Of a stretch of DNA of 64,000 bases, positions 4,957 to 41,263 are shown piece by piece. The stretch spans positions 127,591 to 191,590 of the forward strand of contig JAKLIA010000001.1 of the NCBI GenBank assembly GCA_022709865.1, given 5' to 3'. A program made the position numbers and the translations under genes. How positions within the stretch are numbered: position 1 is the stretch's first letter; each line of letters opens with the position of its first letter. This stretch comes from Patescibacteria group bacterium. GTDB lineage: Bacteria > Patescibacteriota > Minisyncoccia > Portnoybacterales > GWB1-42-6. The notes beneath the pieces were generated by a model. It saw only the letters and a program-made list of their open reading frames with translations, had not been told where the DNA came from and did no database searches.

Positions 4957-4971
4957 AATCAGCGCATATTT

Positions 4972-5280
4972 ATGATGTGGGAAACGATAAAAAAAATATT
5001 GAAAAAAAATCACGGGACTTGTATTATTGTAGAAGATGGACAACCGGTTTTTGTGATCACGGAGTTTGATGAATACCAGAAAGATCTGGAAAAAGAGCCG
5101 GCTGATAAATTGCTCCAATCTAGATTTAAAGAATCGGCTGGAGAAACGGAATTAATAGAAAAGATCAATCAGGAAATTGTTGATTGGAAGGCCAAACAGG
5201 CGGAAAGTTCCCCGGAAGTGCCGTTAGTGGATATTCAGGATAGCGACGAAGTTAGGGTTGAGAATCTCCCTTTGGTTTAA
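4972..5280 (+). CDS. small protein with a Phd/YefM antitoxin-like N-terminal domain and acidic C-terminus; function unknown
   Basis: 102 aa; ETIKKILKKNHGTCIIVEDGQPVFVITEFDEYQK resembles the Phd/YefM fold (helix, then beta-strand with GxPVaVlxxxxeYe); inserted between fusA and tuf; no toxin partner seen. Confidence 0.4.
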   Translation: MMWETIKKILKKNHGTCIIVEDGQPVFVITEFDEYQKDLEKEPADKLLQSRFKESAGETELIEKINQEIVDWKAKQAESSPEVPLVDIQDSDEVRVENLPLV

Positions 5281-5318
5281 AGCTAAGAACAATGGGCTTG
5301 ATTGGAGGGGATTTTAGG

Positions 5319-5356
5319 TTGACGGGGTTGACTTTTCTGAATAATTACGATAAACT
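5319..5356 (+). promoter_or_regulatory. candidate promoter(s) for tuf (TTGACG/TTGACT with -10-like TAATTA/TAAACT)
   Basis: Two overlapping -35-like hexamers, each 17 nt from a plausible -10; about 120 nt upstream of tuf; the leader also holds an imperfect long inverted repeat (TAGCTAATCGCC...GCGATTAGGC). Confidence 0.35.
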
Positions 5357-37669: not shown

Positions 37670-37740
37670 GCGGGTATGGTTCAGTGGTAGAACGCGACCT
37701 TCCCAAGGTTGAGATGCGGGTCCGATTCCCGCTACCCGCT
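37670..37740 (+). tRNA. tRNA-Gly (anticodon CCC)
   Basis: Cloverleaf: acceptor GCGGGTA/TACCCGC, D stem GTTC/GAAC, anticodon stem CGACC/GGTTG with loop TTCCCAA, T stem GCGGG/CCCGC with loop TCCGATT; discriminator U; CCA not encoded. Confidence 0.8.
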
Positions 37741-37747
37741 CAGAGTT

Positions 37748-37871
37748 AGGGACGCAAGCCAACTGCTTGGCTTGCGTTGGGAATCGGACGCCGGAGCGTT
37801 GTTGCGCCAGCAGGCGCAACCGCGAGGCGGTGGCTAGCCCAAGGAGCGCGACGGCGCGACGAGAGGCGAAG
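37748..37871 (+). repeat. GC-rich structured repeat element, copy A (about 124 nt) between tRNA-Gly and tRNA-Thr; homologous to 40865-40997
   Basis: Shares about 80% identity over about 125 nt with copy B; contains a perfect 10-bp hairpin CGCAAGCCAA-CTGC-TTGGCTTGCG and conserved blocks CGCCGGAGCGTTG, CCAGCAGGCG, CGCGAGGCGGTGG, GGAGCGCG-CGGCGCGACGAGAG. Confidence 0.8.
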
Positions 37872-37897
37872 CCGATTCCCGCTACCCGCTCAGAGTT
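37872..37897 (+). repeat. 26-nt direct repeat duplicating the tRNA-Gly 3' end (T-loop to 7 nt past the 3' end); partner at 37722-37747
   Basis: CCGATTCCCGCTACCCGCTCAGAGTT occurs identically at 37722-37747 and 37872-37897, flanking repeat copy A like attL/attR. Confidence 0.85.
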
Positions 37898-37901
37898 TTA
37901 T

Positions 37902-37976
37902 GCCGAAGTAGCTCAGTGGTAGAGCAATCGCTTCGTAAGCGATAGGTCGTGAGTTCAATCCTCACCTTCGGCTCCA
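37902..37976 (+). tRNA. tRNA-Thr (anticodon CGU), CCA encoded
   Basis: Acceptor GCCGAAG/CTTCGGC, D stem GCTC/GAGC, anticodon stem ATCGC/GCGAT with loop TTCGTAA, T stem GTGAG/CTCAC with loop TTCAATC, then U and CCA. Confidence 0.8.
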
Positions 37977-37982
37977 TATTTT

Positions 37983-39090
37983 ATGGAAAATATTAATTTT
38001 AAAAAAGAACTAGAAGCTTTAACTGACCGGATCCAAAAGATTCAGGACCGTCTTTGACTTGGCTCGCGACGCCAAAAGGATAACAGAGATCGAAGAGCTA
38101 ATGAAAGACGGCGAGTTCTGGCAAGACCATGAACGCGCCGGAAAATTGAGCCAAGAAGTGGCGGAGCTGAAAGAAACGCGCGAGAAATGGGAAGAAATTG
38201 CGCTAGCTGTGGAAATACTAAAAACCGATTTGGCGCAATACGAAATTGGCGCAAATGAGGAGCAGGATAAAAAAATAGCTAAAGAGTTCGGCACTTTAGA
38301 AAAAACTGTGGCTGGCGAGGAACGCAAAACTTTTTTTGCTTTTCCCTACGCTAAAAACAACGCTATTCTTTCTGTCTATTCGGGCGCCGGAGGAACGGAA
38401 GCCCAGGATTGGGCACAAATGCTTCTGCGCATGTACCAGCGCTATGGAGAGCGAGCGGGCTTTGGAGTAAAAGTTTTGCATACCCATGAAGGCCAGGAAG
38501 CGGGAATAAAAAATGCTACTTTGGAAATTAGTGGCGCGTATGCCTACGGCAATTTAAAGAACGAAAGCGGCGTGCATCGCTTGGTGCGCTTGTCTCCTTT
38601 TAACGCCAATAATTTGCGCCACACTTCTTTTGCTTTGGTGGAAGTGATGCCGGAAATGGAAGAAGCCGGAGACATTAAGATAAAACCGGAAGAATTGCGG
38701 ATAGACCTGTTTCGTTCTTCGGGCCCGGGCGGGCAAAACGTCAATAAAGTGGAAACCGCTGTGCGCATCACGCATTTGCCAACAGGCATTGCTGTGGCGG
38801 CGCAAAGCGAGCGCTCCCAAAGCGCCAATCGCGAACAGGCGATGAAAATATTAGTGAGCAAGCTCTCCCAAATAGAACGGCAAAAGAAGGATAAAGAAGT
38901 GGCGGGGCTTCGGGCGGATATCCAAACAGGCGAGGGCACGGCCGAATGGGGCGGGCAGATCAGGAATTACGTCCTTCATCCTTATAAACTTGTTAAAGAC
39001 CTCAGATCTGGGGTAGAATCAAAAGAGCCGGACGAAATACTAGGCGGAAAGCTTGATGAGTTTATTGAGGCGGAAATCAGGCTGAAATAA
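37983..39090 (+). CDS. prfB: peptide chain release factor 2 with a programmed +1 frameshift at CTT TGA C (38052-38058)
   Basis: Frame 0 from the ATG at 37983 encodes MENINFKKELEALTDRIQKIQDRL and then TGA; the +1 frame continues as DLARDAKRITEIEELMKDGEFW... and carries the SPF and GGQ motifs; this is the classic CUU-UGA-C RF2 autoregulatory site. Confidence 0.9.
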
Positions 39091-40705: not shown

Positions 40706-40724
40706 TTCTTTTCGTTAATTATCG

Positions 40725-40758
40725 GCGACTAGCGATTAGTCGCTAGTCGCTATTTTAT
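40725..40758 (+). terminator. intrinsic terminator (perfect 11-bp palindrome GCGACTAGCGA-TTAG-TCGCTAGTCGC plus TATTTTATT)
   Basis: Read directly after the ftsX stop; the U-rich tract abuts the tRNA-Gln 5' end. Confidence 0.6.
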
Positions 40759-40829
40759 TGGGGAGTAGCCAAGTGGTAAGGCAACGGACTCTGAATCCGT
40801 CATCGGGGGTTCGAATCCCTCCTCCCCAA
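40759..40829 (+). tRNA. tRNA-Gln (anticodon CUG)
   Basis: Acceptor TGGGGAG/CTCCCCA, D stem GCCA/TGGT-like, anticodon stem ACGGA/TCCGT with loop CTCTGAA, T loop TTCGAAT; CCA not encoded. Confidence 0.75.
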
Positions 40830-40864
40830 CAAACGACCCCGCATTTGCGGGGGAGGCAGTTGGG

Positions 40865-40997
40865 GAGAGCGAGCCAACTGCTTGGCTCGCGTGAGGGATG
40901 AGAACGCCGGAGCGTTGCCGAGCCAGCAGGCGAGGCCGCGAGGCGGTGGTTAGGCCGAGGAGCGCGGCGGCGCGACGAGAGCCGAAACCGAATCCCG
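40865..40997 (+). repeat. GC-rich structured repeat element, copy B, immediately downstream of tRNA-Gln; homologous to 37748-37871
   Basis: Same conserved blocks as copy A; the hairpin GCGAGCCAA-CTGC-TTGGCTCGC carries a compensatory A:T to G:C pair change relative to copy A; preceded by an extra hairpin CCCCGCATTTGCGGGG at 40837-40853. Confidence 0.8.
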
Positions 40998-41002
40998 ACT
41001 TT

Positions 41003-41263
41003 ATGGCTTATTATACTTATATCCTCGAATGCGCCGATAAATCTCTGTATGTCGGCTGCACTAATAATTTAGAGAAAAGAGTAAAGGAGCATAACAATTC
41101 CAAGTGCGGTGCGCATTATACAAAAATCCGCCGACCGATTATTTTAAAATATTCGGAAAAATATAAAACATTACTTAAGGCGCGCCGGCGCGAAGCGGAA
41201 ATTAAAAGTTGGAGACGGGATAAAAAAATACATCTAATTAAATTTGGTAAACTTAAAACTTAG
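41003..41263 (+). CDS. small GIY-YIG domain nuclease (YhbQ/UPF0213-like)
   Basis: 86 aa from MAYYTYILECADKSLYVGCTNNLEKRVKEHN... with the GIY-YIG pattern (YtYIL, YvGcT, R, E, N); the ORF-track N-terminal extension back to 40898 reads through the repeat and is rejected. Confidence 0.7.
   Translation: MAYYTYILECADKSLYVGCTNNLEKRVKEHNNSKCGAHYTKIRRPIILKYSEKYKTLLKARRREAEIKSWRRDKKIHLIKFGKLKT

Follow-up and report, generated by a model that had tools for sequence, protein, structure and literature searches.

The element described here lies in the 3′ trailer of a tRNA-Gln gene, within a 64,000-nucleotide stretch of the genome of a Patescibacteria group bacterium (GenBank assembly GCA_022709865.1, contig JAKLIA010000001.1, positions 127,591 to 191,590). 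This stretch is referred to as the window, and coordinates are given within it, on the + strand unless stated otherwise. Its FtsX is 100% identical to a protein of an NCBI metagenome-assembled genome, and the window is assigned to Candidatus Portnoybacteria. Two copies of the element were located, one at 40859-40996 downstream of tRNA-Gln (copy B) and one at 37754-37897 in the gap between tRNA-Gly and tRNA-Thr (copy A). On balance, we consider that copy B belongs to a Patescibacteria-wide family of non-autonomous mobile elements, ~110-170 nt long and GC-rich, which reside in tRNA 3′ trailers and would be transcribed together with the tRNA. Judged from the sequences collected, this family appears widespread in Patescibacteria and is apparently undescribed. 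The strands of its closing helix derive from the host tRNA, the conserved core and an optional hairpin (H1) are borne by the element itself, and each copy is tailored to its own tRNA, with the tRNA gene left intact.

A family of elements behind Patescibacteria tRNA genes

A covariance model built from 28 family members was used to scan the window. Copies A and B scored 111 and 100 bits, respectively, and no other position exceeded 12.5 bits; the 64 kb therefore hold exactly two copies, both on the + strand. Beyond the window the repeat is far from a pair. A species-level scan with an exact pattern, covering one genome per species, returned nine loci, all nine in metagenome-assembled genomes of Patescibacteria (Saccharibacteria, Paceibacterota, Yanofskybacteria and unclassified members) and each directly behind the 3′ end of a same-strand tRNA gene. 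When metagenomes were scanned with a second pattern, 106 loci came up; ~85 of these are real copies, and about a dozen match by chance within coding DNA of high GC content (glycerol kinase, for example). The loci are mostly short metagenomic contigs (individual loci carry L numbers below). As far as sampled, the family thus appears to be confined to Patescibacteria, a group that accounts for a large share of bacterial diversity and has tiny, streamlined genomes.

The 86 hits of the covariance model comprise 64 with a same-strand tRNA gene ending no more than 130 nt upstream, none with a tRNA gene on the opposite strand, 10 at contig edges and 12 others, among them copies that follow rpsI and repeated units within tandem arrays. 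Expressed as a fraction of the assessable copies, 64/76 lie at a distance of 29-130 nt behind a tRNA gene, and the strand is in every case that of the tRNA. The suspicion that copies occupy the 3′ side of tRNA genes is therefore upheld for the 64 and does not extend to the 12 tandem or non-tRNA cases. The host tRNAs represent 16 isoacceptor types; within the examined loci, which were chosen for containing the element, 64 of 138 tRNA genes are followed by one.

Rfam 15 was searched with the window, both copies, a type-2 copy and 15 loci at gathering and permissive thresholds. No family matched the core of copy A, copy B or the type-2 copy at E values up to 10; at the gathering score the window contained tRNAs only, and all searches together returned tRNA, tmRNA, 16S rRNA and the L10 leader. 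A full-text literature search, whose coverage is incomplete, found no description of the element. A survey of MITEs (miniature inverted-repeat transposable elements) does not mention Patescibacteria (PMC11602168), and the introns reported for Patescibacteria tRNAs belong to group I and are located in the anticodon loop, at position 35/36, group II introns being reported as absent from the phylum (PMC13011429).

The conserved core is a predicted three-way junction

The core is modelled as a three-way junction consisting of a closing helix (P1) and two arms of ~17 bp that carry tandem sheared G·A motifs; RNAalifold yields this arrangement without further guidance. From its base, arm 1 of the family is composed of CGCC/GGCG (P2a), a bulged nucleotide, an invariant GA/GA pair, GCG/CGC (P2b), a variable stem of 7-8 bp and an AGCA loop. 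Arm 2 is composed of covarying helices of 4 bp and 3 bp, a variable stem that is either A-U-rich or contains two tandem G·A motifs, and a GACG loop.

In copy B, the 5′ strand of P1 (GAGGGAT followed by GA) lies at 40893-40901 and its 3′ strand (GAATCCC) at 40990-40996. GGGAT pairs with ATCCC, and GA faces GA at 40990-40991 to form a tandem G·A; at these columns of P1 (9-10/103-104) 16-17 copies have U-A and C-G, and 11-12 have G·A and A·G. Arm 1 (40905-40945), predicted independently by RNAalifold and backed by covariation in divergent and AT-rich copies, begins with P2a (CGCC/GGCG), a bulged G and a tandem G·A between GA at 40910-40911 and GA at 40940-40941. It continues through P2b (GCG/CGC) and CCGAGCC/GGCGAGG, with an internal tandem G·A, to an AGCA loop. 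Arm 2 (40948-40989), supported by covariation, consists of GGTT/AACC (P5a), GGC/GCC (P5b), the tandem G·A of CGAG/CGAG(A), GAGCGC/GCGCGA and a GGCG loop in place of the consensus GACG. The corresponding parts of copy A are the P1 strands at 37779-37785 and 37874-37880, arm 1 at 37789-37829 and arm 2 at 37832-37873. Single-sequence folding recovered the consensus for copy A (z = -5.7) and not for copy B (z = -2.2), where it fails because tandem G·A pairs earn no reward.

Covariation across the family supports this fold. With 28 copies aligned by MAFFT, 84% of cells were paired, compared with 72% in shuffles and 30-44% when the partners were slid, and double changes were found at 22 of 41 pairs. 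With 90 copies aligned to the model, pairing was 85.5% (65% in shuffles, 33-44% with slid partners) and double changes were present at 40 of 42 pairs (761 cells), which was matched by none of 500 shuffles. All 17 pairs of arm 2 vary among the 28 sequences, 13 of them with double changes, and every one is double-changed among the 90. When P2a was scored on an alignment fitted to a register shifted by one column, the true register was still paired in 88% of cases and the shifted register in 29%; that the true register wins on a mis-specified alignment argues against circularity. P2a also occurs as CGGC/GCCG or GGAC/GUCU, P2b as GUC/GAC or GCC/GGC, and the GA/GA pair of arm 1 is invariant in 84-85 of 88 sequences.

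The long-range pairs of arm 1 are retained in divergent copies (L010, L020, L036, L060, L083) and in the AT-rich variants L116 (42% GC) and L118, in which the stems are replaced and the loops and the N-GA/GA motif are kept. Since these copies keep only the long-range pairs, a reading of arm 1 as small hairpins (H2, CGC-CGGA-GCG; H4, CCGC-GAG-GCGG) was rejected. A kissing interaction between the CUGC loop of H1 and the AGCA(G) loop of arm 1 was likewise discarded, as the variants (L118, L036) show no covariation.

Copies A and B have a mean column identity of 81% (85% across the core) and have the blocks CGCCGGAGCGTTG, CCAGCAGGCG, CGCGAGGCGGTGG and GGAGCGCGNCGGCGCGACGAGAG in common, in agreement with the preliminary description of this locus, which had put their identity at about 80%. 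Their H1 hairpins, GCAAGCCAA-CTGC-TTGGCTTGC in copy A (37754-37775) and GCGAGCCAA-CTGC-TTGGCTCGC in copy B (40869-40890), differ by one A:T/G:C double change, as had also been reported. Within the core, nearly all differences are either compensatory or exchanges between Watson-Crick and tandem G·A pairs; in arm 2, for example, copy A has GGCT/AGCC and GCC/GGC vs GGTT/AACC and GGC/GCC in copy B. The H1 change had been taken as a signature of selection on secondary structure. Compensatory change in DNA palindromes can, however, arise by template switching without selection, and two copies with a single compensatory pair are insufficient to show it; the case rests on the wider family. There, H1 has 35 distinct stems around an invariant CTGC loop, and together with the strong covariation of the core this sustains the original view of a structured repeat with preserved pairing.

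Template switching also underlies a reading of the copies as inert scars, either attL/attR-type remnants of integrase islands or terminator and palindrome debris compensated by switching. Direct repeats of tRNA 3′ ends are the classic mark of tRNA-targeting integrative elements, and switching can perfect hairpin arms with no selection at all. Debris of this kind would nevertheless not be expected to present the same 100-nt core and loops at at least 16 tRNA types in several phyla, covariation far above controls, or conserved G·A pairs within stems, which switching would erase; no integrase was found near 70 loci and no distant attachment (att) partner within 8 kb downstream of 15 short-X2 copies. 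We judge this reading very improbable.

Translation is the least probable of the explanations considered. An open reading frame (ORF, 40898-41263) crosses copy B and continues in frame into a downstream GIY-YIG gene, to whose product it could add an arginine-rich leader or N-terminal extension; alternatively, a micro-ORF could start at the conserved GGAGCG(A/T)TG, where a conserved ATG/TTG follows GGAG at a distance of 2 nt. Both window copies keep the frame open. Against coding, amino-acid identity (~79%) is no higher than nucleotide identity, changes are not synonymous in pattern and are paired so that stems stay intact, none of the + frames stays open in every one of the six copies compared, and indel lengths are not divisible by three. 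The variable codons of the micro-ORF co-vary as stem partners (F-R...K, P-S...R, Y-R...I) and its TAG stop reads CAG in other copies, while GIY-YIG is absent from nearly all other loci and its domain already starts at residue 3 of the 86-aa ORF. The earlier dismissal of the ORF as spurious is thus confirmed, and both translation and inert scars are effectively ruled out.

The closing helix is copied from the host tRNA

The host of copy B is tRNA-Gln(CUG) at 40759-40830 (ARAGORN; Rfam tRNA model, 71 bits). Its 3′ part, from the T loop to the 3′ end (X; ~40812-40832), is the source copied by the arms of the element. Directly after the core, 48 of 63 tRNA-linked copies carry an exact direct repeat of at least 12 nt of the host tRNA (X2), with a median length of 18-19 nt and a maximum of 56 nt; maxima after shuffling were 7-12 nt. 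X2 begins at T-loop C56 in 21 copies and at T-stem nucleotide 61 in 8. It ends mostly 0-2 nt from the tRNA 3′ end and sometimes 20-57 nt into the trailer, and in L011, L034 and L040 it reaches the encoded CCA.

The two window copies differ in this respect. X2 of copy A matches at 26/26 positions, with 37872-37897 a perfect repeat of 37722-37747 (tRNA-Gly T loop into trailer), and X2 of copy B amounts to just 8 nt. In copy B, the 68%-GC block that follows the P1 5′ strand terminates in CCGAATCCC at 40996, and C40989 together with the P1 3′ strand gives CGAATCCC, a shortened repeat of the T loop and T stem of tRNA-Gln without the acceptor part; Saccharibacteria tRNA-Gln copies are shortened likewise. 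The preliminary description had interpreted the terminal CCGAATCCCG as an old tRNA-Gly attachment sequence carried along during movement. This interpretation is not supported. CGAATCCC matches the T arm of tRNA-Gln at 8/8 positions (40812-40819), the 5′ arm (GTTGGGGAG...GAGGGAT) also corresponds to tRNA-Gln, and the preceding C belongs to the conserved ...GCCGA end of the element, present with any host tRNA. Moreover, the variant found at the same site in the relative L116, very different and with 42% GC, repeats the 3′ end of tRNA-Gln in full (20/20).

The 5′ strand of P1 is formed by X′, the antisense of X. X′ complements even non-palindromic T loops (ACTTGAA in L060, GGACTTGCAC in L077) and turns the G·U pairs of T stems into Watson-Crick pairs, and in the 90-copy alignment all ten P1 pairs covary with the identity of the host tRNA. 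In L068, X′ carries on as the antisense of the genomic trailer and not of CCA, indicating that the template was DNA or a primary transcript rather than mature tRNA. A mature tRNA acting as primer or template, like the primer-binding site of retroviruses, was accordingly rejected, since the arm fits the trailer and spans the whole T loop past A58 (L068, L060).

X′ consists of an acceptor antisense (X′a) and a T-stem antisense (X′b). In copy B, X′a is GTTGGGGAG (40859-40867), an exact 9/9 antisense of CTCCCCAAC, the acceptor 3′ strand of tRNA-Gln plus 2 nt, and X′b is the P1 5′ strand at 40893-40901, antisense to ATCCCTC in the T loop and T-stem 3′ strand. X′a is host-specific: in L113, the core of which is 91% identical to that of copy B, it differs and fits the tRNA-Ser of that locus. 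H1 is an optional module placed between the two. It was found upstream of the core in 41 of 82 copies, compared with 30 of 1640 control windows (1.8%), and the X′a-to-X′b gap is 24-25 nt in L001, L028, L044, L068, L101 and L106. Wherever X′a is recognisable, H1 exactly separates the acceptor antisense from the T-stem antisense, and by inspection H1 of copy B lies at precisely this boundary. Taken together, these features suggest a model in which the RNA mimics the acceptor/T-stem stack of the neighbouring tRNA, with H1 at the exit of the D and anticodon arms and the core in place of the T loop.

The extra hairpin noticed earlier between tRNA-Gln and copy B was confirmed by reading the sequence (CCCCGC-ATTT-GCGGGG, 40837-40852). 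It has no T run on the + strand, is flagged as terminator-like on the - strand only, and sits in a symmetric internal loop (6x6) bordered by the acceptor 3′ strand of the tRNA and by X′a. Its Saccharibacteria counterpart in L002 has a different mini-hairpin with identical flanks (ACGA...GAGGCA). A linker motif, GAACGAAGTGA or GAGCGAAG(T/C)GAA, also recurs between the tRNA 3′ end and the antisense arm (L001, L003, L022, L077, L113) and resembles the very stable mini-hairpins of the GCGAAGC type.

Copies are gained and lost at individual tRNA genes

Loci of relatives (L116, L117, L118) were obtained through FtsX homologues. In L116, whose FtsX is 92% identical, the site of copy A is empty, and the 82 nt between tRNA-Gly and tRNA-Thr form a spacer with a terminator and a promoter. 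Behind tRNA-Gln the element is absent from L117 and L118, and behind tRNA-Gly(CCC) it is present in L118 and L072. Core pairs with an identity of 92% or more were found behind different tRNAs 15 times and behind the same tRNA twice, and the core of copy B is 91% identical to Saccharibacteria copies, including those linked to tRNA-Gln. The earlier proposal that the element moves is therefore supported both by empty sites in relatives and by near-identical cores behind different tRNAs.

The tRNA-Gly(CCC) gene upstream of copy A has the T-loop sequence TCCGATT (37720-37729), hence C55, where L116, L072 and L118 have TTCGATT; position 55 is a near-universal U in tRNA T loops. The C55 sequence CCGATT is identical to the junction of element and X2, which looks like gene conversion from the downstream repeat into a functional tRNA.

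No protein family recurs near the element: in an all-vs-all clustering of 588 ORFs within 3 kb, the most frequent family was present at 4 of 70 loci. The GIY-YIG protein encoded after copy B was rejected as a partner nuclease, as tblastn with this protein found homologues at only 2 of 115 loci, kilobases away. Large autonomous versions were sought by looking for a second tRNA 3′ end within 8 kb downstream of 15 short-X2 copies, and none was found. A viral origin was set aside as well. The arm-1 pattern gave five matches in IMG/VR, taken as chance and uninspected, and the second pattern (arm-1 loop plus 3′ strand) gave none; one IMG/VR match, L119, agrees in length and position with L021, a false positive of the metagenome scan in high-GC coding DNA. 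The lack of a linked protein family, of a GIY-YIG partner and of a distant att partner, combined with the polymorphism of the sites, argues for a non-autonomous element that is gained and lost on short time-scales.

This pattern also bears on the possibility that the copies are gene duplicates of a non-coding RNA family that benefits the host. Such an RNA would combine a mimic of the tRNA top half with a protein-binding junction (specific loops and a K-turn-like N-GA/GA motif), would be freed from tRNA precursors by RNase P or RNase Z, and could act in trans or in cis, for example in the maturation of tRNA, by diverting nucleases that target tRNA (a decoy) or by soaking up protein (a sponge). 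The AGCA, GACG and CUGC loops, the GGA/GA motif and the junction nucleotides are invariant even though the stems turn over fully, down to the 42%-GC variants; H1 stands exactly at the acceptor/T boundary, X2 usually stops at the tRNA 3′ end or encoded CCA, the fold is specific to the + strand, and small streamlined genomes are expected to purge junk. On the other hand, presence behind the same tRNA varies among close relatives, copies are tailored to 16 isoacceptor types, and near-identical cores cross phyla and tRNA types. Tandem arrays, truncated copies and nested insertions occur, and no model accounts for why a trans-acting RNA should need the arms of its neighbouring tRNA. A host-beneficial RNA is for these reasons a serious alternative that we nonetheless consider unlikely.

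Tandem arrays of the form repeat-hairpin-antisense-core were observed in L018, L056, L069, L084/L115, L036, L098 and L038, and in some of them H1 carries an internal deletion. Such arrays fit repeated insertion into X2 as well as unequal crossing-over or an origin as rolling-circle products. Short sequences are nested in the loops of arm 1 or arm 2 in L057 (4996-5127), L083 (4971-5115), L059 (5539-5704), L069 (~1200-1300) and L018 (~1720-1900). An insert ending in ...GGAAGTACTCTTGTGGTG is common to L018 and L069, and the nested inserts suggest further small mobile modules that target hairpin loops.

The + strand is the folded strand

Among the 28 sequences, non-Watson-Crick cells comprise 122 G·A or A·G vs 21 C·U or U·C, and 17 G·U vs 9 A·C. 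The G·A cells form 5′-GA-3′/3′-AG-5′ tandems at fixed positions that are Watson-Crick in other copies. This excess of G·A over C·U, the form it would take on the complementary strand, identifies the + (tRNA-sense) strand as the one that folds. The folded species is probably RNA of the + strand, more so than folded + strand DNA.

Folded single-stranded DNA (ssDNA) would be a forked or T-shaped hairpin in which P1 recreates the tRNA 3′ region, serving as the substrate of a host or trans-acting recombinase or HUH enzyme, much as do integron attC sites, the attP(+) hairpin of CTX phage and REP/RAYT hairpins. Strand-specific tandem G·A pairs are stable in DNA as well, P1 replicates the target sequence in double-stranded form, and the X1-linker-X′-core-X2 layout is exactly the one expected if a circle with X and X′ had inserted in Campbell fashion; the element-type C55 of the window tRNA-Gly indicates X1/X2 exchange, and arrays of X-hairpin-X′-core units exist in L084, L018 and L056. 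No recombinase or HUH gene is linked to the 70 loci, however, and no GTTRRRY-type or dif-like boxes are present. The re-specification of the arms for each new tRNA is left unexplained, and the orientation always follows tRNA transcription, so that the element is unavoidably transcribed and RNA explains the strand bias at least as well. We therefore hold a DNA fold to be rather unlikely, somewhat more so than a host-beneficial RNA.

Returning to a transcribed RNA, the element appears from its position to be part of tRNA and rRNA transcription units. Just 4 nt lie between the end of copy A and tRNA-Thr (37902-37976), which the element separates from tRNA-Gly(CCC) at 37670-37741. At 37898-37901 the window lacks the ~80-nt spacer, consisting of a terminator and promoter-like TTGGCA...GATAAAAT, that is kept in relatives (L116, 1912-1993), and no + strand promoter or terminator was predicted between tRNA-Gly and tRNA-Thr. 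With this spacer lost, tRNA-Thr must depend on read-through from tRNA-Gly. Co-transcription with the tRNA would thus be forced for copy A, and equally for a copy in an rRNA operon, where it directly follows 16S rRNA and tRNA-Ile (L025, 1-2700).

Comparison with known systems

The element is an interspersed structured repeat tied to tRNA genes that departs from each class with which it was compared in at least some of the defining features. Like tRNA-targeting integrative elements, it sits on the tRNA 3′ side with a direct repeat from the T loop to the 3′ end, leaves the tRNA intact and is polymorphic among relatives; the direct repeat is indeed present at both ends. Those elements, however, span kilobases, whereas only 110-170 nt lie between the repeats here, with no integrase or any other gene within and no integrase or cargo nearby (70 loci). 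Unlike them it also carries an antisense copy of the repeat, its direct repeat varies from 8 to 56 nt, and a single core is found with at least 16 tRNA types, in contrast to the one tRNA to which an integrase element is bound.

REP/BIME/REPIN sequences, Rickettsia palindromic elements, MITEs of the Correia/ERIC type and yeast mitochondrial GC clusters resemble the element in being short, non-coding, multi-copy, GC-rich hairpins in an AT-richer genome, which are modular or mosaic, sometimes tandem, co-transcribed with their neighbours and devoid of a gene of their own. The Patescibacteria element differs in that its terminal inverted repeat is copied from the host tRNA rather than constant in the family: the X′ and X2 arms differ per copy and fit the local tRNA, and conserved terminal inverted repeats are absent. 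It has no target duplication of fixed short length (the repeat start is fixed in the T loop and its end is variable), and neither a recurrent transposase-like ORF nor a RAYT-like partner was seen within 3 kb of the 70 loci. Its unit, although extragenic, modular and sometimes tandem as in REP/BIME/REPIN, is a covarying 100-nt three-way junction with strand-specific G·A pairs instead of a simple palindrome, and its targets are near-exclusively tRNA 3′ ends.

tRNA-like modules, including those of tRNA punctuation, MALAT1 mascRNA, the tmRNA domain and viral tRNA-like structures, share an acceptor plus T-stem-like coaxial helix with a side hairpin at the D/anticodon exit, and share a location within tRNA and rRNA precursors, where RNase P and RNase Z act. 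In the Patescibacteria element a 90-nt junction instead takes the place of the T loop, all pairs of the helix are Watson-Crick, those of the T-loop nucleotides included, and no Rfam tRNA or tmRNA match was obtained. Arm 1 has the strand order of a kink-turn, with stem, bulge, 5′-GA-3′/5′-GA-3′ tandem and second stem (CGCC-G-GA-GCG / CGC-GA-GGCG), but its bulge is 1 nt rather than 3 and no L7Ae-type partner is known here; the other G·A sites are symmetric, bulge-free and alternate with Watson-Crick pairs at the same positions.

Intervening sequences of rRNA and non-canonical tRNA introns likewise replace the terminal loop of a hairpin with a structured domain and occur sporadically in stable-RNA precursors. 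Here, however, the upstream tRNA is uninterrupted and needs no splicing: an intact tRNA precedes every tRNA-linked copy (ARAGORN, Rfam), and no group I core or RF00028 match was detected. A T-loop 'intron' is formally possible for copy A, with its full repeat, and not for copy B. Regarding attC and CTX sites, the consensus contains no R/L boxes or dif-like site, the T-loop junction GTTCGAA misfits GTTRRRY, and no integrase is nearby.

Proposed mechanism of folding and spread

In the model that we favour, a mobile element co-transcribed with its tRNA, the transcript would fold while being made, the tRNA first, then the two arms, and lastly X2 would capture X′. The resulting + strand domain, self-contained and similar to a tRNA top half, would keep the antisense arm off the real tRNA. 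The RNA would then probably be cut out by enzymes that process tRNA or double-stranded RNA, with RNase P, RNase Z and RNase III as plausible candidates.

New copies probably arise at the DNA level, centred on the TTCGAA of the T loop, with the tRNA 3′ end duplicated in both orientations. TTCGAA is near-universal and palindromic, and T-loop sequence brackets the core in inverted form, (T/G)(C/A)GAA...CGA. Two routes can be envisaged, and the insertion mechanism is a conjecture in either case. In the first, a small circle with X and X′ would integrate in Campbell style, followed by gene conversion and hairpin-templated correction of the arms; under this route, the C55 of tRNA-Gly (CCGATT) would constitute direct evidence of X1/X2 exchange. 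In the second, template switching, a replication fork would stall, the nascent strand would fold back to make X′, a switch to a donor would supply the core and a switch back would make X2.

A stronger and more tentative proposal is that the family constitutes a mobile element of a new class: a structured RNA or ssDNA, 'self-tailoring' and without any encoded protein, whose X′a and X′b are re-templated from each tRNA behind which it lands. Such an element would carry a programmable antisense of its own target, mimic the top half of a tRNA and spread among tRNA genes and phyla of the candidate phyla radiation (CPR), possibly by way of a small circle as intermediate or by template switching centred on the T loop.

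Several observations weigh against a mobile, tRNA-tailored family. The exact patterns used for scanning lie within arm 1, which inflates its apparent conservation and means that the family is known from Patescibacteria as far as such patterns sample them, and the 90-copy alignment (A4) was fitted to a model. Twelve copies have no preceding tRNA, some following rpsI and some being tandem units. No mobilising enzyme was seen among the ORFs near 70 loci, and no circular or other intermediate form has come to light. The invariance of loops and junctions across phyla could point equally to a host-beneficial RNA. In copy B, which lacks most of X2, the only pairing partner of X′a is the real tRNA-Gln 3′ end, a poor fit to a harmless self-contained fold. 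Finally, the interleaving of host-specific X′a and X′b with an element-borne linker, H1 and core is poorly explained by either insertion route.

If the family is real and undescribed, it would add a phylum-wide structured RNA with strong covariation to the catalogue, and it would account for many of the GC-rich "intergenic islands" and small spurious ORFs that appear in CPR annotations. It would also provide a natural case of targeting arms copied from the target, which bears on tRNA insertion hot spots and programmable insertion, and a way into the processing of tRNA precursors in organisms that so far cannot be cultivated by themselves.

Neighbouring genes and atypical copies

The gene downstream of copy B (41003-41263) starts with an ATG seven bases past the element and encodes an 86-aa GIY-YIG protein (Pfam PF01541, E = 5e-16). 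In L116, a GIY-YIG ORF (~4964-5342), roughly 40% identical by eye to that of the window, lies upstream of tRNA-Gln and is preceded by a duplicated tRNA-Gln 5′ half, extending to the anticodon stem, with a 30-nt GC-rich insert in the D loop. The window GIY-YIG gene looks like a separate mobile gene that targets tRNA-Gln.

Upstream of tRNA-Gln, the gap after ftsX contains a 12-bp hairpin followed by ATTTTATT (40724-40751), which ends 7 nt short of the tRNA and is kept in L116. It is terminator-like, though tRNA-Gln has no predicted promoter of its own. Between the two copies, prfB (release factor 2, 37985-39090) has an ordinary programmed +1 frameshift site, CTT TGA C, at 38046-38060.

Among the atypical copies, those of L013/L015, L053 and L055 lie behind a putative rpsI (ribosomal protein S9, read from the L053 ORF). 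In L013/L015 the last ~10 nt of the ORF are followed by a terminator hairpin, an antisense copy, the core and a sense repeat; at L055 the antisense arm is not evident. The rRNA-operon copy of L025 is accompanied by additional arm-2-like modules in tandem with the element.

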